Positions 7,219 through 33,326 of a stretch of 35,732 nucleotides of DNA are shown here, piece by piece. Below the pieces are notes generated by a model that worked only from the letters and a program-made list of their open reading frames with translations, was not told the DNA's origin and ran no database searches. Source of the stretch: Jimgerdemannia flammicorona (lineage: Eukaryota). The stretch spans positions 1 through 35,732 of the forward strand of contig RBNJ01000242.1 in NCBI GenBank assembly GCA_003990765.1, given 5' to 3'. Within the stretch, counting starts at the first letter, position 1, and every line of letters starts with the position of its first letter. The translations under genes were made by a program, and so were the position numbers.

Positions 7219-7258
7219 TCAGCTCCTACTAAAGAATAATCTATTCTTAGACTATTCT

Positions 7259-11100: not shown

Positions 11101-14100
11101 TCTGTCCTCTAATAATTCAGTTCCATTCTGTACTATTGTTGTATAAGATGATTTTGATTTTGCCTGTATATCCTGGGTCTATGGTTCTTCCTTCTACAGT
11201 TATTTCATTTCTGGCAAGTCCAGACCTTGAGGTTAGTTGAATATAAGTTCCTTGGAGTGATAATATAGCTAGTTTAGTTCTGAACATCAATGTTCTTCCA
11301 AGTTTGATGATTTGTCCTCCAGACTGTAGAGGTCATATCCTACATATTCTTGGTGAGCTTTGGTCAGGGGTTTGGCCTTAGAATATAGCAGAGCATACTG
11401 GGCAACATCTTGCTGAGTTTAGGCTATCTAAGAGCTGAAGCTTCACTGGCAGAAAGTCTCCAAGTCTGAGATTGAGGTGTGGCCATCTGGCTCTAGTAGA
11501 GAGATCTTAGAGATAGTTAATTCCTCTCTTTCTCATAGGGTCTAGAGCTTCTATAAAATTGGTGGCATCCTCTATCTATCTTTAGCAGGTTGTATATCTG
11601 ATGGGAGCTAGGATATCTTCTCCCAATTGTAGATCTTAAGGGTTCTTCTTCCTGGTTTCTTGGTTTGACTTCTTCAGATCTGACCTCTATTATCTTCTCT
11701 CTTCAATATACAGATTGTAATATCCTAGCTGAGGTGAATCTTCTGGTGCCTGTAGTCTTTGCAGTCTGGGTATCTTCTATAGTTATAATATTCCATTGCT
11801 CAGAAATGCTGTTCCTAGCTATTAATCTCCTGCTGTCATGGGAATTGGTATCTATCTTAATTATAAGTTCGGGAAAGAGTAGTCAAGAGATATACTTCTG
11901 TTTAGATAAAGAGACCTTGTCCTCTGAATTGACTTTGCAATCTTATGGTGACTTCTTGAAAGATGGTTGACTGTATAACTATAGTTGGGAGTTCTAATCT
12001 TCAGGGTCTCTATCTTTCTTATTGATCTAGTAGATAGTACTAATAGCAGTAATCTCAGGAAGAGTAGAAGACTATTTGATGTGGATATCTTCTGGCCAAA
12101 AGGCTCTTTTTTGATATATGTATTTCTTACTTTGGAATAATGGAGATTGTACTGGATCCTTCTTCAATATTCCAGAGATCATTATCTTTGAGGAGTATCC
12201 AGCAAAGATCATCCCAGGGAATGAGTTCAGAGACCTCTTCTTCTTCAGATACTTTTTGTTCAGGAATCTCCTGTTCAGGAGTTTTTTTTTTCTCAGATGA
12301 TTCTTGATTCCAGATTGCTTATACTTCTGTAGCTTTGGCTACAGATGTTTCTAAAATATATCTGTATTTCATCTTCCTTCTTCTGTACTTAGGGCAAGTT
12401 GTACTAGGCAAATTCCTTGTCCCAATGATCTTAGAGGAGTGTATGAGACACTTGTGTCTTTTGAGACAGGTGGAGCATCCTTTGATCTGTTCTGCAATAG
12501 CTCTAATGGTGATATAAATACTATTTCTGATCCACACATTGTCTTCTGATCTGTCATCTACTAGATTAATTCAGAGATTGAGTCTGGGATCATTTTCATC
12601 TTCAGATTCTTTTTTCTCTTCTGTAGTAGACTCTTCACTGCTGGCATATTCTTCCTGGATGGTGACCTTCTTCTTCTTCTTTGATTTCTCATAGCTGGTT
12701 ATCTTAACTCTATACTTCTTGCCTCAGTAGTCAAACATGAGTGCTTATTGGCTAATATTAACAACTGCATTCATTTTCTTCATCTAGTTGATACTAAGGA
12801 TCATATCATAGATGACAGCTTTAGTGACAATAGCTTTTAGAATGAAGAACTGAATGTGTCCAAGGGAGATAGTGATGTTTTATACTTCTCTAAGAGGTTG
12901 AATTTGGGCTCTATCTGCTACTACAATACTGAGATTTAATAGTCCATCAATGGGCCATTGGAGAGTATCCAGAAATTATTTGACAATAATATAGATAGCT
13001 ACTCCTATATCTATGAAGATTTTCACCTTTTATCCTCTAATATCTTTATATAGATAGATGCTAATATGTCTCTCTATAGCTTAAATAGAGGTAAGAGCTG
13101 GTTCTTGATGTGGAATTGGGACTCAGCCAGTGCTAGACCTGGTGGTTCTCAGTAATTTGTTTTGGACTCCAGCTGGTATCAGTTGCAGAAACTGCAGAAG
13201 GGGAACTTCCATCTTGGCTTCTTGAATCTTTTGCCAGACTTTATTGTAGATATCTCTAGGCATAATCTTTAGGGTATACTTCTTCTTGGACTTTGGGACA
13301 GTAGGTTCCCATTCTCCTTGCTCCATTACTTCATCCTCTGGGGGTAGTTCATTTGTTTTTAAGAACAAAAAGTAAGAGAGACTGAAGAGGTGTTTCTACT
13401 TGCTTCTCTTCATATTCTTTATCTTTCTTTTGAATTCTTCTAGTAGTATTTCTAAATGGTCTTCCTATAGATCTCTTCTTTTTTTCTGCTAGGTAGACTA
13501 TCTTTCTTATAATGACTTTGACTGGGTATAAGTCCAGATTACTGTAGCCTTCACTGTTACTTTCCTCTTTGAAGTCTTCAACTAGATAGACTTCAGTCTT
13601 CTTATACTGAGTTTCATTCCTTTGGTTTGGTAGTTCTGAGTCTCTTTTATTACTTCTATATTGTTATATTTAGTAGTATAGTATCCAAACTATTCTCAGT
13701 AAAAGCATTGGACTTGGACTCTGTCTTGAACAGAGTATCTTCTTTCTTCTTACAGTTAGTTCCTATTATCTCTAGGTAGATAACTCTGACTCCTTTGTGG
13801 TGAGTATCCTCTATTGTCTTGATAACTCTAATTTTTACATATGGTAAGTTTTTCAATCTGTCCAACCAATTAGTCCAACTTAGAAGTGAGGTCTTGAATT
13901 TTGCTTCTATCCTTCTTTTCTTCTTTGGGTGGTCTTCTTTCTTCAGATCCTTCCTGTTCTTGGAGGAGTCCTTATAGGACTTTAACCAGAATGTCTTCTT
14001 TGTTATCCTTCTTATTATGGTCACTCCAGATAGATCCTTTTCTAAAATTAAAAAATTCTTGGGCTATATTTACTTGTTCCTTAAATCTTCTGATATCTAG

Positions 14101-14111
14101 AGTACAGATAT
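8101..14111 (-). pseudogene. gag-pol: Element A gag (3' part)-pol: zinc knuckle, protease, dUTPase, RT, RNase H, integrase
   Basis: FIDIGVA (about 13010); VGYDLY, SRSGLA and GFGSS dUTPase motifs (about 11000-11400); SPWASP and LCIDYRKLN (about 10260-10335); YMDD (9965-9976); KGPY (about 8225-8240). Many stops. Confidence 0.9.
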
Positions 14112-15530
14112 TGTGATATGCCAAAAATGTACTACTCAAATTATACCTTAGTCAGATGATGTGAACAATTAGTAACTTAGCCAGATGATATGAATATATA
14201 GTATAGTGACCAGACACAGCAACTATTGTTATAGAAAGTGTATAAATAGCCAGACTACCAGATAAGATATATCTGTATAGGACCTGTACATCTGTGCCAG
14301 ACCTGTACACTTGTGCTGGACCTGAACAACTCATAAGTAGTAAATCTATAGTTAGCTACATAGTAACCAGAGAGCAACCAACTGGTATAAAATACCCCAG
14401 AGATAAGAGTGAATAAACCTCAGAATACATTTCAACTTTAGTTCACTTTTCAATATAAAGAAGAGTCCGAAATTGAAGCAAAAGACAAGTCTATCTACCA
14501 CACTTTGAGAGAAACTCTACAGCCACTGCAAGGAGATTGTGAGCTTATTTCTCCACTCCAGTCTACTTTCTGATACAAAGCTTGAAGATTTTGCTGCTAA
14601 GTTCAAGTGAAGAACTTTGCCACCTTTGAAATTATTGGTACACTTACCAGACTAAGCCTGAAGAATCCAAGTTTGCTACCCAAGTTCAAGGTAGAACTTC
14701 ACTGCCATTTAAGTAATCTGCTACTTAAGGAATAAGCTGCCATTTCCAAGTTATCCATATTCCCAGAAAGCCTAAGAGAAAGCCACCTTGCTCAAGCCAG
14801 TTTCTGATGCAACTTCACAGTGATCCATTATATAAACAAAGCTAGTCTTTGATATAACTTTGCTAAGAGACCCTTTCTCAAAGTCATCAGTTGTTTGTAT
14901 TCCTAGTTGAAGCTGTCAATTCAAGAAGAATCTATAATACCCAAGTTATTATTCTCAGAAGACCCTGATTCAGAAGAATCTATAACATCTAAGTTATTTC
15001 CTGGAAGCCTGCTGATTTAAGAAGAATCTGTAACATCTGAGTTATTCATCATTCCCAGTGAGCCTGAGTTATTGAGTAATCCACCACTAGTACAATTCCC
15101 AAATATCCCATATAAGAAACCCACTGTACTATATAAAATTGCCACACAGAAATTACATAAGGAAACCACCAAATTGCCAGACCATCATGTATAAGAAACC
15201 TATCATGCTATATAAGATTATCACCCAGAAATCACATAAGGAACCCACTATACCACATAGAGATCATTGTGCTATATACAAATTCTACTAATTCCTAGTT
15301 AACCCAAGAAGGAAATCTATTCATACACAAATCACTAGTATACCCAGAGAACTATCTCAATAAGGAAATTGCTCACAGATATCCAGCTTTGACTATTATA
15401 CCACTAAACACCAAGAACCTCAAGAATCTTAGAATATTTTATTGCTTTTTGACAAAGTAACTAGGGCTCAAGCCAAACTATATCAATTCCCAATCTTGTA
15501 ATTTGCCTCTATTGAGCCAGACATGATACA
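14112..15530 (+). repeat. 5' LTR of element B (about 1.42 kb)
   Basis: TG...CA ends. TATAAAA at about 14386, AATAAA at about 14412. Colinear with 23055-24487. Confidence 0.92.
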
Positions 15531-15549
15531 TTTAGAGGCTCAACTGAAA
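15531..15549 (+). promoter_or_regulatory. Primer-binding site of B, probably tRNA-Pro
   Basis: TTTAGAGGCTCAACTGAAA directly after the LTR; the A copy reads TTTGGGGCTCAACTG. Reverting transitions gives TGGGGGCTCAACCGGGA, similar to the classic Pro PBS TGGGGGCTCGTCCGGGAT. Confidence 0.65.
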
Positions 15550-15565
15550 AGATTTCAAAATTGAT

Positions 15566-18500
15566 ATGACTTTTCAGCTCACAAGAACCCACAGTCAAAC
15601 TGGATACATTTTATACAATATCAATCTCTACCACTACAGAAGAACCAGTTATCACTAGTATTTAGATAGAAAGAGAAGTAATCACCTCAAGACTTGCCAA
15701 CTACCCAGCATCAGAAGGTTCCTAACCAGAACCAGAAGCCAGTATAGCCTGAAATCCCCAACCAGATCAATCAGATAATACAGGTGGCCCTATTGGAGAT
15801 TTTGAAGAACTTATACAAAAACTAGAAGATCTTATTACATAAGCTCAAGATCTTACCGCCAGATACCCCATACCAGTCCCATCAATCTCATCAATAGAAC
15901 CTTTACTACAAGCTCTTGCAGAATTGGAAGCAGCTTCTATAAGAATACCTATACTCATTCTACTTTGTCTAAGGTCTAGAATACTATTCTCAGGATACCC
16001 AAGCACCCCCACCTCTAGTGACAGTTCAGAAAGCAAATCAGAATCAGAATCTGAACCAGAACCAGAATTAGAAGAAAGTGATGAAAAAATGGCCACCTTA
16101 TTGCCAATCTTTACAGAATATCCAGAGGAAGACCCCAGAGAATTCCTTGATGGAATTGAAGGAATTGCAGCCCTAAGGAATCTTTCAGATAAAAGAAAAA
16201 TTGCCAGCTATAAGGCCTAGCTCAGAGAACCAGCCAGAGGAATTTTCTATTAAATAGCAAATAACCCAAATTCGGAACTAGCAAGACAGATATAAGTAGC
16301 ACTATCTTATAAGCTAGAATATGTAGCCATAGTCCACTGACTCATTGAAAAGTATGTAGGAAATGAAACCCACCACAAGGCTCAAGAATCTATTATGAGG
16401 ATGAAGATAAATCTTAGAGAATCACCCAGAGTCTTCATCATAAGAATTCAGAAGAGAATGCATACTACTGGGTTCAATACTACCAACCAGAACATTATAG
16501 GTCCAATGACCTTCATGAATGGGATTCTCCCAAACATTGCTCAGTATGTCTACACTCTAGGTATCAGAAGGTCTGAAGAGCAAGTAGATACAGCCCAAGG
16601 ATTCTTTAATGTCAGACAAGAAACTACCTAGAGTGATCATGACAAAAAAGAAGATAAAGAAGATATCCTGGTCAAAGCCCTACAAAGGACAAGAAAGATC
16701 TGAAGAAAGACAGCTAGCTAAAGAAGGAAAGAAGGATAGAAGCAAAATCCAAGACCTCAGCTCTAAGTTGGACTGATTGGTTGGACAGATTGAAAAACCC
16801 ATCATATGCAAAAATTGGAGCTACCAAGACAATAGAGGATATCTACCACAGAGGAGCCAAGATTATCCACCAAGAGATAACAGAAGCTACCAGCAAGAGA
16901 AAAGAAAGTACCCTGTCCAAGACAGAGCCCAAGTCCAATGCTTTCACTTTGGACAATTTGGACACTATACTACTGAATGTGACAACAAAAGAAGTGACCA
17001 AAGAGACTCAGAACAACCAAACCAAAGGAATGACACTCAGTACAAGAAGACTAAAGCCCATTCTGTTGAAGATTTCGAGGAAGCAAGCAATAGTGAAGAC
17101 TACAGTGACCTAGACTTTACCCTACCAAGGTTACTACTCAGAAAACAGTCTATCCAGCAGAGAAAAGGAAGAGACCTATAGGAAGACCATCCAGGAATAT
17201 CAGCAGAAGAATCATCCAAGAAGAAGATGAAGAATATGAAGAGGAATAGATAGAAACACCTCTCTGAACTCTCTCACCTTTTGTTCCTAAGACAAATGAG
17301 CTGATGAAAAAATTGAATAAGAAGAACAGGAACCTGCTGCCCCAAAGCCCAAGAAGAAGTATACCCTGAAGATCATACTCAGAGACATCTACAATGAAGT
17401 CTGGCAGAAGATTCAAGAAGCTAAGATGGAGGTCCCCCTTCTGCAGTTCCTATAACTAATACTAGCTGGAGTTTAAAACAAATTACTAAGGACCACCAGG
17501 TTCAGTACTGGCTGAGTTCCCATCCCACAACAAGAGCCAGCTTCTATTCCTATTCAAGCTACAGAATGACATATCAGCACTTACTTACATAGAGACATTG
17601 GAGGACAAAAGGCAAAAATCCTCATAGACACAGAAGCAGCTATCTGTATTATTACCAAATGATTCCTGAATACCCTCCAATGGCCCATTGATGGACCATC
17701 TAACCTCAGTATCATAATAGTAGATGGAGCCCAAACTCAACCCCTTGGAGAAGTATGAAACATCACTATCTCTCTTGGACACATTCAGTTCTCTATCCCA
17801 AAAGTAGTTATAACTGAAGCTATCATCTATGATATGATCCTTGGTACCAACTGGATGAAGGAAATGAATGCAGTTGTTAATATTGGTCAACAAGTACTCA
17901 AGTTTAACTACTGAGGCAAGAAGTACAGAGTTAAGATAACTAGCTATAAGCAATCAAAGAAGAAGAAGAAGGTCACTATTTAGAAAGAATATGCCAGCAG
18001 TGAAGAGTCTACCATAGAGGAGGAAGAAGGATCTGAAGATGGAAATAATCCCAGACTCAACCCCCAAATTAACCTGGTGGATGATATACCAGAAGACAAT
18101 GTATGGGTCAAGAACACTGTCCCCATTACCATTGGAGCTATTGCAGGAGAAATCAAAGAATTCCCCACCTGTCTCAAGAGATACAAGTACCTTGAGCACT
18201 TCTCCAAGATTATTGGGAAAAGGAATTCGCCTGGTATAGTCTGCTCTGAGTGTAGAAAGAAGAAGAAGAAATGCAGATATGCTCCAGAAATACCTACAGC
18301 TGAAGCTGCAGAGGTGCAAGCAATTTGGAGACAAGAATCATCTAAGGAAGAAGAGGTTCCTGACCAAGAAGTTCCTGAACAAGAAGTACCCAAAGAGGAA
18401 GAAGTCCCTGAACTCATTCTCTAGAATGACCCTTGCTGGATACTACCTAAAACAATGACTCTTGGAATATGGAAGAAGGATCCAGTACAATCACCATTAT

Positions 18501-21500
18501 TCCAAAGAAAGAAACTCACCAGAAAAAGGCTTTCTAGCTAGGAAGATGTCCACACCAAATGGTCTTCCACTCTCCCCAAGACTACTGCTATCAGTGCTAT
18601 CTTCTAGACCAATAGGAGAGATAGAGACCCCAGAGACCAGAACCTCCAAATATAGTTGCACAGTCAACTACCTTCCAAGAAGTTACCACTAAGTTGCAAA
18701 GCTGATTCAGAGGACAAGGCCTCTTCATCCAGACAGAAGTATACCCCTTATCTACTCTTCTACTAACTTATGACCAAGATGGATACTGATTCCCAAGACA
18801 ACAAAAGATCAACAACTGGAAATATTATTTCTGAGCAATAGGATATTGTAACCATAGAAGACATCTAGATTGCTGAGATTATAGGCATCAGAAGATCCAT
18901 CTCAGTCATGATGTTGCAATTCACACTTTGAAGAGAGGAGATAACTGAAGTCAGATCTGAAAAAGCCAGATCAAAAAGCCAGGAAGAAGGACCCTCAAGA
19001 TCTATGATTTAGAAGAAGACATCCTAGCTCTCATCAGACATGCAATCTGCCAAAGATGAATAGAAGATGCCACCAACTTCATGAAAGCCCTAGACCCTAT
19101 AGGAGAAGAGAAATCAACTATCTCCAAGACCCCTCTACTGGAGCCAGATGGCTGCACCTCAATCTCAGAGCCTGGAGGCTCTCCGCCAGTAGAGCCTCAG
19201 TCCAAGGACAGACTGAACTTAGTAAGGATATTGCCCAGTATGCCCTGCTATATCTCAAGGCCAAACCCCTGACCAAAGTATATACAGAAGATATATGATA
19301 TAATCTTCACAGTCTGGAGGATGAATCTATCAAGCCTGGAAAAACATTCATGATTAGAACTGGACTAGTCATACAACCACCTCAAGGAGCTTACATCTAA
19401 TTGACCTCAAGGTCTGGACTTGCCAGACAAGGAATAACAATAGAAGGAGGAACCATTGACCCAGGATATATAGGTAAAATCAAGGTCATTCTATACAACA
19501 GTAGTACAGAATGGCACCAAATCATTAGAGGATAGAAGATTGCCCAAGCAGTCTTCATGAAGGTCAAGACTCCACAATTATAAGAAGTCTCTGAACTGAC
19601 TGAAGAAACAAGACAAGCCAAAGGATTTGGAAGTTCAGACAAGATAGAAGTATATCTCCTTCAAGTCAACTATCCCAAGAGGAATGTTCTCCAGCAAGTA
19701 TGCTGCCAACCAGTCAAACTATACAAGAACCTCATCCTGAAGCCTAGAGAAAAAACCACCTTTGAAATCTTTGCACCACCTGACTCCAGAAACCTTTTCT
19801 TCAAACCTAATGAAGATATCCCATACCTGGATATAGAAGGACACACATTTCCTGACAAGATGAATCCAGTCCACTCCTGAGCAACTAACCAAAGTTGGAA
19901 AACCATTATCTTGTCAAAAGGAACCATCATAGGACACCTGGTGCCTTTTCTCAATTGAACTTATAGGGAAGTTTATGAACTAAACCTATCAGGAAATGGC
20001 AAAAGGTCTCAGAAGAAAAGAAAGGCCCCTCTGTGACCTAGGAGACAGTAAAGCCTTCTACCAATATTGGAGAGAAATTGACACTCCAGCAACAGCAACA
20101 ACTAGTAGAACTTCTCAACAAATATCAAGATATCTTCACTACTGATTATGGCAACTTGCCATATAACCCATCATATCACTATAGCATAAATACAGGAAAT
20201 GTAACACCTATCTGGTAGAAACTCTATAGAATACTCCATCACCTAAAAACATTCAAAAAGGAGTACATTTAAGAACTCTTAGAGAATAGAGTCATCTGAC
20301 CCTCAACCAGCCCCTGGGCCAGCCCTATACTTATTGTACCAAAGAAAGAAGAATGGAGACTCTACATAGACTATAGAAAACTTAATTCAGTCACCAAAAA
20401 GGATGCCTATTCTTTATCCAGAATTGATAACCTTTTGGATCAGTTACAATATACCAGATACTTCAGCAGTATGAATCTCTTTGCAGGATTTTATGAGATC
20501 TCTATGGACTGAAAAGACATTCAAAAGACAGCTTTCCTTGCTTTAGAAAAACTGTTTAAATACCTCTGAATGCCTTTTGGACTTTACAATGCACCACCCA
20601 CCTTTCAGAGGATGATGAATTCAGTCTATGCTCTCTTGATCCACTACTGCCTAATTGTATACATAGATGATTTCAACATCTATTCAGTAAATTTCAAAGA
20701 ATACCTATATTACCTAGAGGAATTCTTCAAGCTCACCTGCAAAAACCACTTGAGACTAAATGCAAAGAAATATTACTTTGGGAAACAGAAACTCAAATTC
20801 CTTGGATTCATAGTTTCAAAAAAAAGGAACCCATGCAGATCCAAAGAAAACTGAAAAGATCAACAATTGGCCAGCACCCAAGACCTTGAAGGAAATATTA
20901 TCATTCCTGATGCTGGTATTCTACTACAGAAGGTTTATCAAGGATTTCACACAAATTGCTGCCCCAATCCAAATTCTTCTCAAGAAAGAAGTGCCATTCA
21001 AATGGACAGAATCACAAGAAAAAGCCTTCAAAGAACTCAAGAACTACATGACTACAGCACTAATCCTTGTACACCCCAATCTACAGAAACTATTCATCTT
21101 ATATATAGATATTTCTAAAAATGGCCTTGGAGCAGTTCTAGCTCAAGAAGGATACAATTAACAACACTATATAATAGCTTATATAAGCAGAGCTATCAAT
21201 CAGCAGCAGATGAACTATAGTAGCACTAAACTGAAATGCCTTGCAGTCATATGGATGACCACCCTGTTCAAGCATTACCTTATTAGAAAAAGATTCACTC
21301 TGATCACAGACCATGTAGCCCTCAAATAGCTATTCAACCACAAGGAACCCATCAGAATCCTAGCCCACTTGACTCTTATTCTTCAGGATTACAAAATCAC
21401 CATCATCTACAAAGCAGGAAAAGCTTACAACAATGTTGATGTATTTTCTTACTAGCCCCAATAAATCAGAAGAGAGGAACTATACCCTAAAGAAAGCCCC

Positions 21501-22518
21501 TCAGACCATCAAGGTACAAGAACATCTTATCTGAAAAGAATACCAGAAAGCCCACCAAGGACAAGTGAGCATAGAAGAAAAGTTGTGAACAATATACCAA
21601 TATTAGCCCAAACTCAGAACACAAGTTCAGAATATACTCAAGAAATATGATACCTGCCAGAAGTATCAAGGAAAAAAGAATTATCAAGCACTACTGCAAT
21701 CAATTGCACTACCAGATAACATCTTTAGTAGATGTAATTGGACTCCTACCAGTCATACCAAGAAGGAACAAATATATTATTATATTTGTAGAACATTTAA
21801 CAAAGTGACCTGAGGCTTTCTCAATAGAAATTACAGATGCCTTAACCATTGTAGGCCTTCTCCATGAACTCATACTCAGATATGGACTTTCAGAAGAACT
21901 AATCTCTGAGTGAGGCACCAAATTCATCAATAATATAATCATAAGTTATGCTTGAATTCACAAGATCCACCTCAAATAGACCACATCATACCACCCTCAG
22001 ACCAATGGTATGACAGAAAGAATGAACCAGACCATTAAGAAAGGACTTGCTTAAGTTAATTCTATCAACTGGGATCTCTGCTTATCTGAGATCCTATGGG
22101 AAATCCAGAACACCCCTGCTGCCTCTACCAAACAAAAGCCATTCAAAATGATATTTGCCAAGAAAACCAGAGCTGCTGACCATGAGAATTTCAGAGACCT
22201 TCTTAAGAAGACAGAATAGTTATATAATCAAGCCCAAGCTTAGATTATTAAAGTACAAGAAAGACAAAAGAAGTACTATAACCAGAACAAAAGAATCAGG
22301 AGATCAAGATTGGAGATCAAGTACTAGTTTGGAGAAGCATGATTGAAACAAATTTTGCTGCCAAACTGAAGCCCAAATGGGAAGAATCTTATCTCATATA
22401 TAATATCAGAGGAACCAGCATCTATTTAAGAGACATGGATATATGAATTCTGAAGACACCAGTATACATCAATTACCTCAAGATATATCTTTCCCCACAT
22501 CATGAATCAGAGAGTTGA
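15566..22518 (+). pseudogene. gag-pol: Element B gag-pol
   Basis: ATG at 15566. Knuckle CFHFGQFGHYTTEC (16939-16980); protease LIDTEAA (about 17621); dUTPase; RT SPWASP / MPFGLYNAPPTFQR / YIDD (about 20659); RNase H LYIDISKNGLGAVLAQ and TDH; integrase YHPQTNGMTERMNQT and KLKPKWEESY; stop at 22516-22518. Confidence 0.93.
19230..19640 (+). pseudogene. dut: Trimeric dUTPase domain within pol of B
   Basis: Motif I I*YNL (VGYDL in A), II SRSGLA, III GGTIDPGYIGKIKVIL, IV G*KIAQAV, V RQAKGFGSSD. Confidence 0.92.
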
Positions 22519-23014
22519 TAACCACCTTCAGACTCTTGTCCTCAGCTCATTTCAATTACTACTAGTTCCCCTACCCCAATTCCAAGAAGTCAATGAGAAC
22601 ACTCTCCAGAAGATCCAGATTTATCAAGAGAATCTTGTTCTGACCAGATGATTGCTACAGGTCCACCAACTTCAGGCCCATTATGCAATTGGAGAACAAT
22701 TGCAAAACCTCTCAGTCCCTGAACAGACATATATCAAAAATACTACAAGACTATCAAGGAGAGATGTCACTGCTGCAGACAGACTTTACACTCTTTATAA
22801 ATGAAACCCTGCAGCCCTGATACAAGCACAATTCTCCTGGTATAATGCATGAGGAATGAACCTAGCCACCTACCTGAGCATCATTAATGCTGTTGAAATT
22901 CTATTCTCAGAAGAAGAAGAACTCTTAGAATGGAGCAACCATGGTACAGATGATAAAGATAATAGAACAGATATTGATACAGAAGATGCTTACCCACACT
23001 AAGATGATGACTAA
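22502..23014 (+). pseudogene. Accessory ORF (about 170 codons, unknown function) between pol and the PPT of B
   Basis: MNQRVDNHLQTLVLSSFQ...LQAHYAIGEQLQNLSVPEQTYIKNTTRLSRRDVTAADRLYTLYK*NPAALIQAQ...EEEELLEW... in one frame. Three internal stops are TGA (compatible with CGA decay), with one TAA at 23000 near the end. Confidence 0.8.
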
Positions 23015-23054
23015 AGGACAGTCTGAGGACAGACCATCCTTTAGTGAGGGCTGA

Positions 23055-24487
23055 TATAACATACCAAAAATATATCACCCAAATTATATCTTAGCCAGAT
23101 AATATGAACAATTAGTAACTTAGTCAGATGATGTGAACATATAGCATAGTGACCAGACACAGCAACCATTGCTGCAGAAAGTGTATAAATAGCCAGACTA
23201 CTAGATAAGATATATCTGTGCAGAACCTGTATACTTGTATCAGACCTGCACACTTGTGCTGGACCTATACAACTTGCCATAAGTAATAAATCTATAGTTA
23301 GCCAAATAGCAACCAGATAGAAACCAACCTGTATAAAATACCCCAGAGACAAGAGTGAATAAACCTCAGTCTGAAATTCAGAACACATTTCAACTCTGGT
23401 TCACTTTCCAATACAAAGAAGAGTCTGAAATTGAAGTAAAATATAAGTCTGCCTACTATACTTCAAGAGGAACTCTACAGCCACTGCTAGGAGATTGTGA
23501 GATTATTTCCCCACTCTAGCCCACTTTCTGATACAAAGCTTGAAGATTTTGTCACCAAGTTGAAGTGAAGAACTTTGCTGCCTTTGGAATTATTGGTATA
23601 CTTACTAGACTAAGTCAGAAGAATCTGAGTTTGCTGCCCAAGTTCAAGGAAGAACTTTGCCACCATTTGAGTAATCTGCTGCTTAAGAAATAAGCCACTA
23701 TTTCCAAGTTATCCACATTCCCAGAAAGCCTAAGAGAAAGCTGCCTTGTTTAAGCCAGTTTCTGATGCAACTTCACAGTAATCTGTTATACAAATGAAGT
23801 CAGTCTTTGATGTAACTTTACCAAGAGACCCTTTCCCAAAGCTGTCAGTTGTTTGTATTCTCAGTTAAAGCCACCAATTCAGAAAAAATCTGCAACACCC
23901 AAGTTATTATTCCCAGAAGAACCTGATTTAGAAGAATCCATGCCATCCAAGTTATTTTTCAGAAGCCTGCCAATTTAAGAAGAATCTGCAACATCTAAGT
24001 TATTTGTCATTCCTAGTGAGCCCAAGTTATTGAATAATTTTCTGCCAGTATAATTCCCAAATGTTCCATATAAGAAACCCACCATGCTATACAAATCACT
24101 ATATAGAAATTACATAAGGAAACCACCAAATTGCCAGACCATTATGCATAAGGAACCCATTACACTATACAAGATCATCACTCAGAAATTGCATAAGAAA
24201 CCTGCTGTGCCACACAGAGATTATTATGTTACATACAAATTCTGCCAATTTCCAGTTGACCTAAGAAGGAAATCCATTTATATACAAATTGCTACTATAT
24301 CCAGAGAACCATCCCAATAAGGAAATTGCTCACAGATATCTAGCTTTGACTATTATACCACTAAATACCAAGGACCTCAGAAATCTTAGAACATTTTGTT
24401 GCTTTTTAACAAAGTAACTAGGGGCTCAAGTCAAACTACATCAATCCCAATCTTGTAATTTGCCTCAATTGAGCCAGGCACATTACA
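23055..24487 (+). repeat. 3' LTR of element B
   Basis: Preceded by PPT-like TTTAGTGAGGGCTGA (23040-23054); ends CATTACA; colinear with 14112-15530. Confidence 0.92.
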
Positions 24488-24491
24488 ATAT

Positions 24492-25506
24492 ACTGAGCAA
24501 TATTTAGCAGAATTCTATTTATGAAAGTCATTGGACCTATAATGTCTTGGTTGGTAGTATTGAACTCAGCTATATATATTCTCTTCTGAATTCTTATAAA
24601 GAATACTCTGGGCAATTCTCAAAGATTCATCTTCATTACTATGATAAATTCTTGAGTCTTATAGCAGATCTCATTTCCTGTATACCTCTCAATGAGCCAA
24701 TATACCATGGCTTCATATTCTACTAGCCAAGTTGATACTATATTGGTGGCTGCTCTAAGGTCTAAATTGATATTATTTCTTACTCAGATAAAAATTCCTT
24801 TGGCTGGTTCTCTGAGCTGGGCCTTGTTGATGGTAATTTTTCTTTTAGGAAAAAGGTTCTTCAGTACTATAATTCCTTTGATTCCATCAAAGAATTCTCT
24901 TGGGTCTTCTTTAGAGTATTCTGCAAAGGTTGGTAATGGGGTGGCCATTTTATCATTACTGTCTTCTGATTCTAGTTCTGGTTCAGATTCTGACTCTAGT
25001 TTAGATTCAGATTCTGATTCACTTTCTGAATTGTTGCTGGAGTTCAAGATACTGGGTATTCTGAGGATAGTGTTGAAGATCTTGAGAGAGATAGAATAGG
25101 TCTGGATATTCTTGAAGGAGCTATTCCTTAATCTTCTTGTTCTATGATAGCTAGTAGTAGTGGTTCAATAAGTGAAATTGGTGAGACTTCTGCAGAAAAT
25201 CAGACTTGTTCAATGAGGTCCTTAAGTTATTGTGCAAGCTCATCAAAAACTCTGGTAGAGCTGCCTGTGTAATCTGGTTGATCTGGTTGGTCCTATAATA
25301 AGTCTATTAGTACTGGCTAGAGATTCTGTACTATATTGACTTCTAGTTGAGATCTTTCCAATACTGGATAGTTGGCAAGTCTTGAAGTGATTACTTCTCT
25401 TTCTGTCTAAATACTGGTAATGACTAGTTCTCTTATAGTGGTAGAGATTGGTATTGTATCAAATATATCCAGTTTGACTGTAGGTTCTTGTGAGCTGAAA
25501 AGTTAT
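24492..25506 (-). pseudogene. gag: 5' part of element A gag
   Basis: SESESE...KMATPLPTFAEYSKEDPREFFDGI matches B gag (KMATLLPIFTEYPEEDPREFLDGI). The start ATG is mutated to ATA at 25506-25504. Confidence 0.88.
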
Positions 25507-25522
25507 ATCAATTTTGAAATTT

Positions 25523-25540
25523 TTTCAGTTGAGCCCCAAA
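25523..25540 (-). promoter_or_regulatory. Primer-binding site of A (tRNA-Pro-like)
   Basis: Minus strand TTTGGGGCTCAACTGAAA immediately after the 5' LTR end. Confidence 0.65.
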
Positions 25541-26732
25541 TGTAATATGTCTAGCTCAATAGAGATAAATTACAAGATTGGAGGTTGATGTAGTTTGGCT
25601 TGAGCCCCCAGTTACTTTGTCAAAAAGCAACAAAATATTCTAAGATTTCTGAGATTCTTGATATTTAGAGATATAATAGTCAAAGCTAGATATCTATAAG
25701 CAATTTTCTTATTAAGATAGGTTCTTGAGTATAGTAGCAATTTGTATATAATGTAGGTGATTTGTATAATGGTTTCTATATAGCACAATGATCTCTGTAT
25801 AGTACAAGTAAATTTCTTATATGAGACAATCTGAAAATTTGGTAGCTTCTTTATTGAGTAATGATTTCTAAAAGTACACTATTTCTGGTACATATGATGA
25901 TCTTAGTATGATGAACTCAGTGTGATAAACTTAGTAGTATTCTTTATGTAGGTTTGGTGGATAACTTGATTTGGTACAGATTCTCCTATATCAGCAGATG
26001 ATATAAATAATTCAGATAACTTAGATAACTTCAATAATGCAGATTCTTAACTCATTGGAAATATTAGATAACTTGATAACTTGAGCAACTTAGATAATAG
26101 GTTTTTGATAAGTTATATCAAAGACTAGCTTTATTTATATAGGGTTATGTCATAGACTAGCTCCACTATGAAGTTGTATCAGATAGACTAACTTGTGATA
26201 AGATTTCTACAAGTTCTCTAAGAATAGCAGATTCTTCAAATAGTGGTAAAGTTCTTTACTTAAACTTAGATGGCAAAATACTCAGATTCTTTAGACTTAT
26301 CTGGCAAGTGTACCAATTAATCTTTATATTGAAAAGTAGACTAAAGTTGAAATATATTCTGAATTTTGGACTCTTCTTTATATCAGAAAGTAAACTGGAG
26401 TTGAAATATATTCTAAATTTCAGACTGAGGTTTATTCACTCTTGTCTCTGGAGTATTTTATATAGTTGTGATTGTTATCTGGTTACTATATATATTGCTA
26501 ATTATAGATTACTAAATATGACAGATATATCTGAATGGTATAGTGTACTAGACTGATATAGTATATCTACTCAGTATAGTATACTGGACTAGTATAGATA
26601 AACATACTATTTCTGATATCTCTGGCTAATTATACAGGTTGGCACAGTAAAGTAGTCTTGGTTGCTTAGGTATACTAGATATGGTATGTAGCTAATTTTT
26701 ATTTTAGTAAGATAATTCTACTCCTCATTATA
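25541..26732 (-). repeat. 5' LTR of element A
   Basis: Direct repeat of 5966-7218; terminal ...CATTATA (from CATTACA). Confidence 0.9.
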
Positions 26733-26733
26733 C

Positions 26734-27111
26734 TAGGAATCTTAGCTATAGCTAAGCCACTGGCTGGCCAGATGGCTGGGTTTAATTTTCAGGTTATAGT
26801 AAATAGGAAGACTATTGGCCAATGACTGACCAGAGTGGCTCAGCCTTAAATTTATAGATTGGCTACTTGACTAAGTGACTAGGCCTTATTTGATTATTGT
26901 GATTTCTAAATTTTCTAAATTAAATAAATACTACTTAACTAGTTAGCTATAAATTTAATACCAGAATAAAATAGCTCAGTTTTAAATTTATAGATTGACT
27001 AGTTAGCTAGACTAAATTTAAGGTCAAGCCACTTAGCCAGTTGGCTATAAATTTAAGACTAAGCTATCTTTATCAGCCATTAACTATATGGCTAGTTATC
27101 TAAGATCTCTA
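26734..27111. mobile_element. Second copy of the hAT-like MITE family (left end differs and is uncertain)
   Basis: About 26816-27111 is colinear with 7447-7740 and ends ...AAGATCTCTA. TAGGAATCTTAG at 26734 matches the first 12 nt of the inverted right end at 10/12. No 8-bp TSD recoverable. Confidence 0.75.
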
Positions 27112-27659: not shown

Positions 27660-30600
27660 TTTTAAACTGAACAACAAACAACTACTACCATCTGAACAAC
27701 CATATAAATCAAATCAAGACATCCAGACAAGATGAATATAAGACTATTAGTATTCTACAGATATACTTCAGACAAATTAATTATTACATTTATTGATAAT
27801 TTTGAGCAGTATACTGCTGTAAGGACTCTGATAGCAAGATAGTAAGACAGTAAGTAACTCTTATATCCTTCAGTCTCCAAGGACCAGCAAGAGCAGTATT
27901 TATAGTTATAATCTATATAGGAAATAATTATAATACTATGCTAACAATATAGAAGATCTGGCTTTAAACTACCTACTATATAGATGAGATCAAGCAAACT
28001 CTAAAGAATAAGCTCAATACAATATATCAAGGAATGAGCAAGGACCTAAATATATTCTATACCAGAATCTGATATTAGATAATTCTTGTTTTTTATGCTG
28101 ATGCTATCTGAGATCAAATAGCTGAAGCAACCTTTATGAAAGAAGTTTATCCAGAGATAGTCATGGCTATCTACTTATCACTAATAGTCTTAGATCTAGT
28201 ACAAAAGATTACCTATACTCAACAATACTAGATAGTCAGACATCTATAAGACCATATAATAGAAAGAGTTACTGAAGTCAAAATTGAACCATTCAAGACA
28301 ACTAGCATAATCTCTACTATAGTGATCAATCAAAACACACCTCAGCTAAGAACTACTAAGTAGCAGAGAAATAGTGACCCTATAGAGGAACTTGCTAAGA
28401 AGCTTGCTAAAATAACTACTCATCTAGGAGATATAATAAAGGATTAGAGGAAGAGATTGCCACTTAGTTCAGAAGTTTGCTGCTACCTTAGATAAGAAGA
28501 GAGGTACCTACTATACATATAAAGAAGAAGGTCACTACTCATATAAATATATAAGTAAGATTAAGCATAAAGCTCAGCCAAGCAATGCTACAAGAAATAA
28601 GAATAGGTCAACACTATTATCTTTGAAGAAATTAGAGAATTAGATGAAGAAGAATGAGAAGCCTATTCTGCTGAGACTATTAAGAAGAATGTCCACAGGT
28701 AACTCTACAAGAGACCACTAGAGAGATCTAAGAAGAACTCTATAGAGAAACAGATAGAGAGTATTATAGAAAGTCAAGCTAAAGAAATGGATCAAGATAT
28801 AGAGTTGAAATAGGCTATCTAAGACATCATCCAAGGAACCATCTTAGTTAGCAAAGGAGATCTTTAAGTATAATATCTTCAAGGATCTCCCTTTGGCCAG
28901 CTGATAGAAATATCTATATTCAGATAGCAAATGAGATACAGACTTGCTGAGACAACTAAGGAACAAGGATAGAAGATAACTGAAGTCAACAATATTTAAT
29001 AAGACTTGAGAGAAGAAAGTAAAGACAATTGCAAGACCTCTACCTATGCAATCTGTTAAATCAGATAGAATCTGTAAACCTATTATTGACATTAGAGCAG
29101 GAGAATGTCTCCTCAGTAAGAAAGCAACAAACTGCCTAGATTGGGAGGTTGAAGAAGTAATCAAATTAGTGTTTGTTATAGCAGATGGCACAGAGCCACA
29201 CCTCTAGAAAAGATTCAGAATGTTTTCATAAGTTCAGAGGAGCAACAATCTCAGTAAATGTAATTGTAACCAATACTACTAACTATGATATCCTCATCAG
29301 CAACCAGTGGCTTCATAAAGTCAGAGCAATAATTGATCTGAATGCTCAGAAGATGTAGATTATCTACTAAGATCAGAAGATGTAAATTCCCATCAATATC
29401 AACAAAGGAGTACTGTTTGAGATAAAAAAAGAAAAAAGCAAGCAAAAAGAAGCCTATATAGTGGCTATACAGAAAAAGAAGAAGAATGGTGCAAAAGAAT
29501 CATTGAAGAATATATGCCACAAGGAGTCTGCTCTTATAGAATTAAGATATACTATATGAAATATATTGATAATTACTACTAGTATATCAGTAAGATCAAG
29601 AAAATCTATTATAAAGAAGACAGAAGGCTCTTAAGAACAGACAAGGTAAGAAAAGGAGAAGAAAGAAGATGATAACCACCAGCCCTCCTAAAGAATAGTA
29701 ATAACAAAGAAGAAATCAAGGTCAAGATTCAGAAAATCCATCCTAATATAGTTCTATCTGAATATAAGTTCAAGAATGTAGCTGGAATAAATATTACCAT
29801 AGTAGAGAAAACTATACTAGAGCTCTAGACAACTACTCTGCTTGCAACTAGTCTGGAAATGACCATTCCAAAGGACTATATCAGGATCCTCAAGTTAAGA
29901 AGCAGTCTGACCAAGAGTAAGATTATCATTAAAGGAGGAGTCATCAATTTAGACTATATTGAGAAAATACTACTCATTACTAGAAATAATAACCCTATAA
30001 TTCTATTTTCAATTAAGAAGAAGGACCAATTGGCATAGATATTGATCTTCCTAGTTCTTCAGCCAAAGATTATAGAAGTCAAGAAGTTGGAGAAAATAGA
30101 AAGAGGTAGAAAAGGATTTAAATCTACTAGAAGAGGAGTATTTACTAGGACCAAGATTACAGAACTAGATCACAAGGAGAAAACTACAAATAAGTATAGC
30201 TATACTATTGAAGATGAATTCCTACTCAAGAAGAAACTCAAGAAGATACTCTATAAATTTAAGGATATCCTAGCCATAGACTTCAAGGATATCAAGAGAA
30301 AGACTCTATACTACTATCATGATATAGATATAGAAGACACTGAACGAATCTACCAAAAAGCAGACCAATTTCACCAGCCTATCATAAATAGCTCAGAGAA
30401 GAAAACAAGCAGATGGAAGAAGCTGGTATCATCAAAGAAGCTAGTAGCCCTTGGGCTTCACCAGTTATATTGGCCCTAAAAAAAGGAAGTAAATTAGAAG
30501 AATTTGCTCCAAGGCTCTGTACTGATTACAGAAAGCTCAATCTGGCTACAAAGAAGGATCACCAATCACTGCCCCTCATCAGTGACATTCTTTTAACTTT

Positions 30601-32829
30601 GAGAGACAAAGTATAGCACTATAGTATCTTGAATTTATACTCAGGATTCTACCAGATTGGTCTCACTGAAGCAGTAAGTGAAAAATCAGTCTTTATTACT
30701 CTAGACAGAACCTCTGTCTATCTATAAATACCATTTGAAATATGCAATATACTAGCAAGCTTTTAGCAAATAATAAATAAAATCTTCTGCTATAATATAA
30801 GAAGATAGATAATGGTTTATATAAATAATATTATTATCTATAGCAAAACAGCTGAAGAATATCTGCAGCACATCCCACAGATAATAGAGAAGCTAAGATA
30901 GTATGGTCTTTACATCAAGCCCAAGAAGTACAAGTTTGTAGAAATTGAGATTTTCTATCTTAGCTATATTATTAACTAAGATAGAACACATGCAGACCCC
31001 CTTAAGATTCAAGCAGTAGTAGTATACCTAAGATCCACCACTATTACTGAAGTCCAAGCCTTCATGGGACATACCTCTTACTACTGCAGATTTATCAAAG
31101 AATTCTCTATTATTGCAAGCTCAATCTATAAACTCAACAAAAAGAATATTAAGTTTCAATAGACTGACAGATAATAGAAAACATTTGATAAGCTCAAGAT
31201 TAGGCTGAACTAAGCACCCATCCTTAGAAAATCTGATTAGACTCAAGAATTCATCTTGTAGATAGATATAAGTACCCAAGTACTAGGAGCTATCCTGGTC
31301 TAAAAAAAAGACAAAGTAGAATACATCATTGCATATCTCAGCTGAGGAACTCAAGGAGCTAAAAAGGAGTATGAATCTTATAAGTTGGAATATCTTACAG
31401 TCATCTGAGTTATAGAGAAGTTCCACTACTATCTTAAATGAAGATACTTCACCATCTAGACAGATCACTCCACTCTCACTTGACTATTAACTACTGGATA
31501 ACTCAATGGAATCTATATCAGATAGTTTATAAAGTTGCAAGCCTATAACATAATCATCATACACCACCCTGATAGAACTAATGCTAATATAGATACTCTC
31601 TCACAGATACTCCAAAGGACTCTCAACCAGCAAATCAACCATGAATAAGAAACTCTACTTGAAATTATTACTTATCTGAGATAGCAAAAGATGCTCCAAC
31701 ATCTGGAAGAATGAACACAAATGATTATTAATAGAATATGGAAATAATTTAAGACTAATAGAGAAATACTAAAGAAAGAAAAGCTACTAGTCATACCCAA
31801 ATACAAGAAGGAGTAAACAATGAAATCAGTATATAAACTTAGCTATCTAGGAAGAATAAATATATATAATAAAGCAAAAAGAACAATATAGTAGCTAGGA
31901 ATGGAGGAAGATATCAGATGATTTGTCAAGATCTGTAATAGATATTAGAAACAGAAGCAAGATCAATAAAATTAGACCCCAGGATTAGTACACATAGAAC
32001 TAGTACTCTTTACATATATTATAATAGATATAATCAGCCCCCTATCCTTGACTTTAAATGGCTACTAATATATCATTATCATTATAGATCTTTTCACAAA
32101 ATAGATAGAGACAGAATCTCTCAAAGAAGCTAATATATAGTCAATTACTGATTTCTTCCATATAGAAATCATATGCCAATTCAAGACTCCAATACAAGTA
32201 ACAATAGATAGAGAAACAGAATTCATAAATAAGTTCTTTGAGATTCTCTACAAGAAGTATAAGATATAGTACATTTGAACTATAGTCTATTACTCTCAGA
32301 AATATAGATAAGCAGAAAGGACCAATAAGATCTTTAAGAATATCATTGCTAAGATCTGTGATAATTATGAAAACTGAGATTACTATCTGCTAATAGTATT
32401 ATCTGCTCTTCAGGATATCTGATTACAAAGCATACATTTTACCCCTTAAGAGATACTATTCAGAGAAGAAAGGTTTTAAGAAATCTTACTATCTAATAGA
32501 GATACTATATAGAAATATATGGATACAGAAATATGGAGACTATACTAAATCAGAAAGAAGACTAAGGATTACATAATCAAGACACAGATACTACAATAGA
32601 ATAATACAAGAAAACTTACAAGTCTCTGGAGATTATCAAGATAGGAGGCAAAGTTCTAGTAAATCAAAATATAGTAGAAGCTTTATGGTCATAAAAACTA
32701 GAGCCTAAGTGGAAAGGACCTTACCTTGTATAAGATATAAAAAGAACTATCTTTTGGCTACAAAAACTCTCAGACACAATCATCCCTACTACCATTCACT
32801 GAAACTCACTCAAGAAGTATTATGGCTAA
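27660..32829 (+). pseudogene. gag-pol: Element C gag-pol (5' boundary approximate)
   Basis: Knuckle YYTYKEEGHYSYKY (CCHC with Cys->Tyr, 28509-28550); protease IIDIRAG (about 29082); dUTPase (AGINI, LRSSL, GGVINLDY, RGRKGFKST; about 29720-30135); RT SPWASP / LCTDYRKLN / YINN (30818-30829); RNase H; integrase KLEPKWKGPY. Confidence 0.9.
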
Positions 32830-32882
32830 TTAATGGAGTATTACTATAGCCCTCAAGATTACCAATACTACATAATGAGCTA

Positions 32883-33281
32883 TAGAAAGACAATGATGCA
32901 CTACTGAGCTTGATTATAGAAGAATCCTTTAATAGTATCTAGAGTATTTTTCAGATACACTTATCATGAATCTTGTATTTTAAGGCCTATCAGAACTAGA
33001 CTGAGGTTCAAGAATACTTCAAGTTGGGACAGCTACTAAACTCACAGCTAGAGATGGGTAAAGAAGATTGGATTAGAGAGTGCCAGCTCTCTCATACTCA
33101 GATAACAGTTATCAAGTGAGTTAACAAGTTGTTCAAAGATGATGAGCCAGCTCTAGCCTATTTTTGAGAAGTAGTTTTAGGAGACTTTGGATATATTAAG
33201 AGATACATATTATTGAGAGAATGTAATAGCATAAATTATACAGTAAAAGGAGATATAAATTGTAGAAGCTTGGGAGTTTGA
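32883..33281 (+). pseudogene. Accessory ORF downstream of pol in element C (start uncertain)
   Basis: ...FQIHLS*ILYFKAYQN*TEVQEYFKLGQLLNSQLEMGKEDWIRECQLSHTQITVIK*VNKLFKDDEPALAYF*EVVLGDFGYIK has the same position and motif spacing as the B accessory ORF. Confidence 0.65.
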
Positions 33282-33326
33282 GTAAATAGGATATTTCAGA
33301 GATGAATCATCTATTTAGAAGAAAGT

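Follow-up and report, generated by a model that had tools for sequence, protein, structure and literature searches.

To our knowledge, extra genes are rare in LTR retrotransposons, and most of them have no known function. In bdelloid rotifers (PMC5408684), LTR elements are described as carrying varied types of a third open reading frame (ORF3), which lie on the sense strand between pol and the 3' LTR of retrovirus-like elements and fall into recognisable families, namely env-like glycoproteins, GDSL esterases or DEDDy exonucleases; a dUTPase is present in three of the four rotifer lineages, and the same type of ORF3 is shared by different lineages of retroelements. The ORF3 presented here, found in two Gypsy elements (B and C) within a 35,732-nt stretch of the Jimgerdemannia flammicorona genome (contig RBNJ01000242.1, the window), resembles these rotifer genes in its strand and position, in the dUTPase of its host elements and in its occurrence in different lineages. 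Unlike the rotifer ORF3s as described there, it has no recognisable family, enzyme motif or membrane segment, and it overlaps the pol stop codon. A second comparable gene is brtn, the extra gene of Boty-like Gypsy elements in Botrytis cinerea (Zhao et al. 2011, as cited in PMC8365987). Both brtn and the present ORF3 are extra genes of unknown function in fungal Gypsy elements; by its description, brtn is set apart, being antisense, whereas the ORF3 of B and C is a sense frame downstream of pol.

In element B, ORF3 occupies positions 22502–23014 of the forward strand as a frame of 170 codons, which begins MNQRVD, ends with a TAA at 23012–23014 and, in this decayed copy, contains four internal stops. 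Its ATG at 22502 is in the +1 frame relative to pol, whose TGA stop codon (22516–22518, forward strand) falls inside the first 17 nt of ORF3, and the 17-nt overlap given in the initial annotation proved to be exact. The frame ends 38 nt upstream of the 3' LTR, which opens with TG at 23052, and a purine tract (putative PPT; 23043–23051, forward strand) lies directly 5' of this LTR. The host is a Ty3/Gypsy element with a dUTPase and without a chromodomain (domain order PR-dUTPase-RT-RNase H-IN). Element A carries an ORF3 of the same family on the reverse strand (8117 to 7259), with the same ATG and frame and the same 17-nt overlap, as had been claimed; this copy has many stops and is longer than that of B because of a MITE-like insertion of about 340 nt at 7403–7740.

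The matching segment that had been noticed in element C at the equivalent position was also borne out. There, ORF3 spans 32822–33285 of the forward strand, with stops and two frame changes in the window copy, and its ATG at 32822 overlaps the pol TAA (32827–32829) by 8 nt, again in the +1 frame. The shared motif is found at 33015, downstream of pol and ahead of the 3' LTR, and the frame ends 43 nt before this LTR (opening with TG at 33329; the 5' LTR starts at 27125), which is preceded by a purine tract (putative PPT) at 33317–33325 of the forward strand. Element C has the same domain order as B and likewise no Chromo match. The layout of the two elements is thus the same, with a +1-frame start a few bases before the pol stop and an end about 40 nt before the 3' LTR, and in both the gene belongs, by its position as a sense ORF between the pol stop and the PPT/3' LTR, to the ORF3 category. 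The two elements are deeply separate (identity of 35% in RT, 37% in RNase H and 22% in ORF3), in agreement with the view that distinct Gypsy families share this gene.

The proposal that a real accessory gene underlies these copies gained its support from intact homologues in public protein sets. The intact relatives of the B family have 171–172 aa and include the stand-alone proteins P0008 and P0022 (171 aa) and P0009 (172 aa); P0009 and P0008 are identical at 127 of 170 residues, and P0013, of the same family, shows 51% identity. The intact relatives of C have 153 aa; both full-length C proteins begin MANQRS at an ATG that overlaps the pol stop, and in P0023, of the C family, the inner Met is replaced by Phe. 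Within the window, the ORF3s of A and B share 51% amino acid identity over 124 aa (tblastn, E 2.8e-30), with a further match in a tail piece. Their DNA differences in the ORF3 frame are most frequent at codon position 3, followed by 1 and 2 (0.444, 0.355 and 0.228, respectively; chi-square p=0.0016, and 3e-4 once the tail is included), which is the pattern also seen in the pol pieces of A and B. These data indicate that the flagged stretch represents, in decayed form, a genuine and previously unnamed third gene of a Gypsy element; the intact proteins of 171, 172 and 153 aa, together with the codon-position constraint, further indicate that ORF3 has apparently been maintained as a coding sequence.

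Concerning the relationship between the copies, the window copy of C taken alone matches B with E=2.6, and the homology of B and C becomes significant once intact relatives are included. Similarity between profiles, which the initial annotation had named as a test, was obtained for B and C by hhalign (P=6.4e-5, probability 64%). The B profile scored 18.0 and 15.3 bits against the C proteins, and the C profile 8.8–13.7 bits against the B proteins; none of 1000 shuffles reached such scores in either direction, where the shuffles preserve composition and not helical periodicity.

ORF D (35102–35731, forward strand) is intact and runs off the end of the window, with no pol upstream of it in the window, and appears to be a distant ORF3 relative with an additional conserved insert of about 70 aa. 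The merged B+C profile scored 7.3–14.9 bits against four D proteins, with 0 of 1000 shuffles as high for each. With one family per profile, the hhalign links to D were weak (P=0.0039 and 0.031; P=0.081 in the first comparison of B with D), and 2–104 of 1000 shuffles reached the real score in the single-profile tests, the exception being the B profile against P0005 (10.1 bits, 0 of 1000 shuffles). The D family is under purifying selection (pN 0.215, pS 0.70, dN/dS about 0.12 against L001). The "env position" described for the copies holds for B and C and is not seen for D within the window, where no pol precedes it; moreover, since D has its own start and no pol upstream, coupling to pol is not the sole expression route of the family.

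The left relic (1588–1980, forward strand; motif at 1663) is a heavily decayed, probable fifth copy, located on the same strand as an integrase SH3 domain (about 413–548) that lies some 1 kb upstream, and it is significant solely against the three-family profile (14.9 bits, 0 of 2000 shuffles). A chromodomain had been suspected there by eye; Pfam gives the SH3 domain and nothing else. Because D and the relic were both selected visually out of the entire window, their nominal P values make the links look stronger than they are. When all six frames were scanned with the three-family profile, the result was exactly the five copies initially listed, with nothing else above -3 bits, and the spacings of 35, 35, 36 and 33 residues from Gly to F/Y were correct on recount of the translations. 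The three-family alignment is collinear, running from an N-terminal motif through a core to an acidic, tryptophan-containing tail. As judged from the sequences, the stand-alone ORF D and the relic appear to be more distant relatives of ORF3.

If no real shared gene existed, B and A would hold a leftover open frame, and the likeness of C, D and the relic would be a coincidence of a short helical motif picked by eye. The stop-ridden window copies, the poor match of B to C alone, the first hhalign of B with D and a library search that found the B family and no other relatives would suit such an explanation. It is nevertheless barely credible in view of the intact copies and the coding-frame substitution pattern, of profile matches that beat every shuffle (B with C, merged B+C with D, and three families with the relic), of the identical layouts of B and C, and of the low dN/dS in D. 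We therefore consider the ORF3 gene family very probably real. The sharing between B and C had been attributed to a mobile module, an idea that found no support; since both elements have a dUTPase, no chromodomain, the +1-frame overlap with the pol stop and a similar distance to the LTR, common descent suffices without any exchange.

The ORF3 proteins are acidic (pI 4.5–6.2, net charge -3 to -35), including their cores, and the last 30 residues of the B proteins contain 10–13 D/E and no K/R, with aromatic residues (W, Y or F) in the same segment. The pLDDT of the AlphaFold model was 47 with B-family rows only, which made it unusable, and 76 with the merged alignment; the latter model has seven helices, so that the helical nature supposed earlier is also what the model predicts. 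The absence of an env or transmembrane signature agrees with a highest Kyte-Doolittle 19-residue mean of 1.14 (eight proteins) and with the lack of any Pfam env family in 13 family members, and the view that this is no chromodomain with the lack of a Chromo match in Pfam. At E<=10, Pfam gave no family for the window copies or the 13 members (best 0.026, noise); a sequence-profile search of the PDB reached E=0.71 at best, and Foldseek with the better model gave no match at E<=0.001 (best E=3 in the PDB and 1.3 in BFVD). The best VIA fold match, with Z=6.2, lies under the helical noise level, which the tool places at up to about 13. In the ESM Atlas, D had no usable match; P0008 had a model of its own (pLDDT 0.76) with generic helical hairpins as neighbours (TM<=0.37), and its feature matches were unrelated hypothetical proteins.

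Complex retroviruses keep regulators between pol and the 3' LTR, and ORF3 could accordingly be read as a transcriptional transactivator, a small nuclear protein in the style of foamy virus Tas or HTLV Tax, whose helical core would recognise the LTR directly or via a host factor, whose acidic-aromatic tail would be an activation domain, and which would be made from a subgenomic or internally promoted RNA. Besides its slot, this reading has in its favour the acidic tails of the B proteins with their aromatic residues, the helix-turn-helix DNA-binding domains of ParB, Spo0J and KorB in three of the top eight VIA rows (1vz0_A, 6s6h_B and 1r71_A; Z 5.9, 5.4 and 5.2, in the range of helical noise; rmsd 3.4–3.7 over 87–90 residues), and, among the weak Foldseek rows, the papillomavirus E2 activation domain and foamy Bel-3 (E=2.4, TM 0.39). 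None of these fold matches rises above noise, however (E>=1.3; Z<8), the protein is acidic throughout, core included, which is unusual for a DNA binder, and the conserved overlap with the pol stop plays no part in the model. The DNA-binding function that had been suggested is therefore not supported, and a transactivator seems unlikely.

The overlap itself has a role in the reading that we prefer. Stop/start overlaps of this size serve reinitiation in caliciviruses and fungal victoriviruses, and a downstream AUG that overlaps the upstream stop is present here in B and A (17 nt) and in C (8 nt). By this analogy, translation of ORF3 would begin on the full-length RNA through termination-coupled reinitiation at the pol stop, which would place small amounts of the protein beside newly made integrase. 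The protein may then act as a non-enzymatic adaptor, with a helical core that would bind Pol or integrase products and an acidic-aromatic tail that would bind a basic partner, such as nucleocapsid, integrase or histones, and it might aid a nuclear or integration step at the point where chromoviruses carry a chromodomain; its presence in both B and C would reflect common descent, not module exchange. A genuine ORF3 with a Pol-coupled adaptor as its product is, as a whole, the best explanation and the most likely reading, although we hold it tentatively; the bundle of a reinitiation product, an adaptor role in a nuclear or integration step and common descent of B and C is in itself rather doubtful.

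The same overlap has been considered in another way, in which a programmed +1 frameshift close to the pol stop would append ORF3 to the integrase C-terminus, where it would serve as an optional targeting domain replacing the chromodomain. Ty1 and Ty3 use a programmed +1 frameshift for gag-pol, both B and C have ORF3 in the +1 frame, the open stretch of this frame reaches back from the ATG by 16 codons in B and by about 27 in C, and neither element has a chromodomain. In B, GAG-AGT-T stands just before the stop, a sequence that we take to differ from the Ty3 shift site by a single base; as a conserved feature, GAGAGTT was rejected, since an Ile at residue 5, as found in some members, requires AAT in place of AGT. 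Fusion is further opposed by the lack of a similar shift site in C, by an ATG that is kept there in every family member, by D as a stand-alone ORF, and by a whole-library search with the B profile, without length limit, that returned no pol-fused domain protein. Such an integrase extension is thus very unlikely, and an adaptor translated from its own ATG remains the preferred reading.

The state of the window bears on one more possibility, namely that ORF3 is a counter-defence factor that blocks a component of host silencing (DNA methylation, RNAi or a deaminase), for example as an acidic nucleic-acid mimic, so that new copies would be protected where element silencing is heavy. The transposable elements of the window have a CpG observed/expected ratio of 0.00–0.02, compared with 1.10 in the host gene island, and LTR pairs differ almost wholly by transitions (194 versus 25 in B). 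Between A and B, ORF3 has evolved faster than pol (66–74% versus 78–85% nucleotide identity), as expected under conflict, and the strong acidity of the proteins would suit a mimic. Against this, Pfam, PDB profile and Foldseek searches revealed no likeness to known suppressors, selection on D is strongly purifying and shows no sign of being positive, and all window copies were silenced and decayed regardless; we regard this role as quite improbable. It is also unlikely that the genes form an undescribed family, coupled to pol as a third gene in two or more deep Gypsy lineages and standing alone, under strong purifying selection, as D, in which the host domesticated a regulator or counter-silencing factor borne by transposons or the elements captured a host gene; if true, this would provide a handle on how elements persist under heavy methylation and mutation.

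A whole-library HMMER search with the B profile returned five proteins, all of the B family, and was too insensitive to reach even C or D; the likeness to expanded proteins of mycorrhizal fungi suggested earlier was likewise not found in this search, which is too insensitive to exclude such relatives. A metagenome scan for the B family yielded 409 pattern matches, of which 0 were confirmed, and scans of viral contigs for C and B also gave 0 confirmed matches. Within the openly available full texts covered, including main-text passages of PMC12210899, a description of this ORF3 was not found. The family is unnamed and without a Pfam entry; retrotransposon ORF3s as a kind of gene are already known. 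Since the family is absent from Pfam, such ORFs are annotated as orphan "hypothetical proteins" or missed, and an ORF3 profile would improve the annotation of elements. ORF3 is kept across lineages with an RT identity of 35%, its fixed link to the pol stop suggests a testable mode of expression, and a stand-alone relative under purifying selection adds to the case; it therefore offers a workable case for the roles of non-enzymatic accessory proteins, such as targeting, activation or counter-silencing.

Among the better-known systems, the chromodomain of chromoviruses follows immediately on the integrase SH3/GPY-F module, in the slot that ORF3 fills in B and C; unlike the chromodomain, ORF3 is a separate frame with its own ATG and is predicted to be all-helical, with no Chromo match in Pfam. 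The foamy virus Tas/Bel and HTLV Tax regulators are likewise small, lie before the 3' LTR and have an acidic tail, but they show no sequence or significant fold similarity to ORF3, and they are expressed from spliced RNAs. Termination-reinitiation pairs are represented by VP1/VP2 of caliciviruses, M1/BM2 of influenza B virus and CP/RdRp of fungal victoriviruses. The gag-pol upstream of ORF3 is far longer than the upstream ORFs of these RNA-virus pairs, and reinitiation is putative here; as in those pairs, the second start codon lies at or across the stop of the first ORF, with overlaps of 8 nt in C and 17 nt in B. In the calicivirus, influenza B and victorivirus pairs, the two products are physical partners, as the ORF3 protein and the Pol products would be if ORF3 encodes a Pol-coupled adaptor.

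ORF3 of element B (22502-23014, plus strand), the accessory gene between pol and the 3' LTR, is a real gene, since its frame is open in divergent relatives and the differences between elements A and B follow a coding pattern. In agreement with the initial annotation, the translation runs over 170 codons, beginning MNQRVD, and the ATG at 22502, in the +1 frame, overlaps the pol TGA (22516-22518) by 17 nt. The terminal TAA lies at 23012-23014, followed by a purine tract (23043-23051) and, directly after it, the LTR (start at 23052). The window copy carries four internal stops, and a word-indexed search with the stop-masked frame recovered five proteins among 29 candidates. Two of these, P0008, with 171 aa and 81% identity to the window copy, and P0009, with 172 aa, start at the same Met, both finish in ...WDDD and are identical at 127 of 170 positions, and P0013 is 51% identical to P0008; the frame has thus been kept open through substantial divergence.

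Element A has the same ATG, overlap and frame (8117-7259, minus strand), as had been claimed, and its protein is 51% identical to that of B over 124 residues (E 2.8e-30). The surplus length of the A ORF comes from a MITE-like element of 340 nt, inserted at 7403-7740 and bounded by 42-nt terminal inverted repeats (86% complementary); a second copy of this element, 82% identical, lies at ~26790-27110 between the 5' LTRs of A and C. No part of the element has diverged faster between A and B than the ORF3 region (66-74% nucleotide identity vs 78-85% in pol), and the ORF3 differences are distributed over codon positions 1/2/3 as 0.355/0.228/0.444 (p=0.0016; p=3e-4 including the tail), the same pattern as in the RT and integrase pieces. 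Beside these data, the alternative that ORF3 is no real gene is scarcely credible.

The window, of eukaryotic DNA, is AT-rich (~33% GC), and decayed Ty3/Gypsy elements are piled up across it. The Pfam scan of stop-masked frames identified protease, dUTPase, RT, RNase H and integrase domains in B (plus strand), dUTPase, RT, RNase H and integrase in C, and an integrase SH3 domain at the left edge. The dUTPase (PF00692) lies between protease and reverse transcriptase in both B (~19270-19640, E 1.8e-22) and C (~29760-30130, E 1e-13), and the pairing of a dUTPase with Gypsy elements, mentioned for fungal elements in PMC2774666, would fit a fungal source. Repeat analysis placed the LTRs of B at ~14100-15466 and 23052-24448 (plus strand) and the LTR starts of C at 27125 and 33329, and showed that B (13962-24489) is nested in the gag region of the same-family, minus-strand A (7259-25540); the body of A is in two pieces (7259-13961 and 24490-25540), with LTRs at ~5924-7234 and 25498-26751. 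A low-complexity, microsatellite-like stretch (~34400-34800; poly-L, poly-Y/H and poly-T in translation) lies between the C 3' LTR and ORF D.

CpG is nearly gone from the elements (observed/expected 0.00-0.02, e.g. 15600-22500 and 27700-32800), and the LTR pairs are ~85% identical with differences that are nearly all transitions (B: 194 vs 25), which together point to methylation-driven deamination, not age alone. That ORF3 encodes a factor countering the silencing of such elements is distinctly improbable. The sole CpG-normal stretch amid the CpG-free elements is a GC-rich island (49% GC, CpG observed/expected 1.10) holding a split host gene of the NAD-dependent epimerase/dehydratase family (~4100-5600, minus strand; PF01370, E 4.2e-7).

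On sequence evidence, ORF3 is common to B and C, as the initial annotation had proposed from a matching segment; the profile-profile match, the shuffle tests and the identical gene layout all bear this out. The stop-masked C segment by itself matched B at E=2.6 only; it recovered four intact relatives among 11 candidates, to which a cluster look-up added the full-length 153-aa C proteins P0023 and P0024. The B and C profiles matched at P=6.4e-5 (probability 64%, 52 columns). The B profile scored 18.0 and 15.3 bits on the C proteins and the C profile 8.8-13.7 bits on the B proteins, with 0/1000 shuffles as high in either direction, the shuffles preserving composition and not helical periodicity. 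The full-length C proteins start with MANQRS, which corresponds to an ATG at 32822 in the +1 frame overlapping the pol TAA (32827-32829) by 8 nt; this overlapping ATG is likely the true start, since the inner Met is replaced by Phe in P0023. The C ORF ends at 33285 (plus strand), followed by a purine tract at 33317-33325 and the LTR start at 33329.

B and C are deep lineages, with identities of 35% in RT, 37% in RNase H and ~22% in ORF3. Both contain a dUTPase, and no chromodomain was found in either by Pfam. Given these shared traits and the shared layout, common descent with faster ORF3 evolution would be the simplest account, and the "mobile module" suggested initially is not needed.

ORF D, intact from 35102 to the window end, is not preceded by a pol within the window and so does not occupy the env position there. 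Single families linked to D only weakly: hhalign gave P=0.081 against B, improving to 0.0039 once the B alignment was enriched, and 0.031 against C, and in most single-profile tests 2-104/1000 shuffles reached the real score. The B profile scored 10.1 bits on P0005, tested as a D protein (0/1000 shuffles), and the merged B+C profile, with no D sequence inside, scored 7.3-14.9 bits on four D-family proteins (0/1000 shuffles each; highest shuffle 4.0-6.0), a nominal significance that is inflated, as D and the left relic were chosen by eye from the whole window; here too, the shuffles do not keep helical periodicity. The B/C/D alignment is collinear: an N-terminal M-x-Q/E-x-hydrophobic-D/R motif is followed by a Y-x-I/L-G-x-x-L helix, an A-x-K/R-I/L-Y/H-x-L/I-F/Y-K/R helix and an acidic stretch around Trp, with a ~70-aa insert extra in D. 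Taken together, D is probably related to the ORF3 family. D is clearly a working gene: compared with L001, a metagenome relative with a 323-aa ORF (D 35102-35731, L001 69-1040), 210 aligned codons gave 63% amino acid identity, pN 0.215 and a saturated pS of 0.70, or dN/dS ~0.12. Conservation in L001 further extends to the 21-residue leader of D that precedes the MFQDIRR motif and to ~30 nt on the 5' side of the ATG. D has 50% GC in a 28% GC setting, and its CpG content (observed/expected 0.18) is nearer the elements than the host gene; the surrounding locus of D extends past the window end.

A six-frame scan of the window with the three-family profile scored B at 164.9 bits, D at 155.2, A at 77.6 and C at 66.5, and then the left relic (1588-1980, 9.0 bits, i-E 3e-4), after which only the A tail and noise at -3.1 remained. 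Tested alone, the relic scored 14.9 bits (0/2000 shuffles as high), and its relationship to the family is probable. The motifs noted by eye were confirmed in place (B 22679, A 7940, C 33015, D 35318, left 1663), and the Gly-to-F/Y spacings (35, 35, 36 and 33) proved right when counted on the translations. By eye, a decayed-chromodomain-like stretch can be read at ~617-760 (plus strand), in the pol frame directly after the integrase SH3 of the relic, where Pfam reported no chromodomain. If it is real, the relic would be a chromovirus, which would extend the occurrence of ORF3-like sequence to a third type of Gypsy element.

Concerning the protein itself, 13 family members matched no Pfam family (best hit noise, E=0.026), a PDB sequence search gave no match (best E=0.71), and no membrane segment was found (highest hydropathy mean 1.14); identification as env thus failed for want of both a membrane segment and a Pfam match, and identification as a chromodomain for want of a Pfam match. 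From the B rows alone, AlphaFold reached pLDDT 47; the merged alignment yielded a seven-helix bundle for the C protein (pLDDT 76.3, pTM 0.72). No significant fold match was obtained by Foldseek (best E=3 in PDB, E=1.3 in BFVD) or VIA (best Z=6.2), where ParB/Spo0J/KorB DNA-binding domains reached Z 5.2-5.9, which for helical models counts as noise by the tool's own range. With a pI of 4.5-6.2 and a net charge of -3 to -35, the proteins are acidic; the last 30 residues in B hold 10-13 acidic and 0 basic residues, and the tails include aromatics (...AYPYWDDD in B, ...EAWEFE in C). A Tas/Tax-like transactivator, in which this would be an acidic activation tail, is an unlikely identity.

In both deep lineages, the ORF3 start codon shortly precedes the pol stop and is in the +1 frame, an arrangement which suggests translational coupling, in which ribosomes fresh from pol termination would reinitiate on ORF3. 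In caliciviruses, influenza B and fungal victoriviruses, a downstream partner protein is expressed by such reinitiation. Since D begins at a start codon of its own and is not preceded by a pol, the family must have some mode of expression besides coupling. An integrase extension through +1 frameshifting has very little probability; the five proteins returned at E<=0.001 by a B-profile HMMER search of the whole protein library all belonged to the B family, without a pol fusion among them, in a search that missed C and D too and says little on remote relatives. Coupled translation would place small amounts of ORF3 protein beside fresh integrase. Based on this coupling, the acidic, non-enzymatic, helical nature of the protein and the absence of a chromodomain, we tentatively consider it possible that ORF3 is an adaptor that binds products of Pol as well as some basic partner, be it nucleocapsid, integrase or histones, and assists a nuclear or integration step.

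Additional ORFs located between pol and the 3' LTR form an established category, and the present gene has the position that defines an ORF3. Full-text searches of the main texts of open-access papers showed no description of this family, and we rate it as an unnamed protein family within that category; that such a gene exists is no surprise as such, and it provides a clean, conserved and testable case. The extra gene of the Botrytis Boty elements, brtn, is described in PMC8365987 as antisense, whereas the ORF3 reported here is not antisense. The bdelloid rotifer elements, as portrayed in parts of PMC5408684, have varied ORF3s common to several retroelement types, and three of the four lineages contain a dUTPase, as do B and C.
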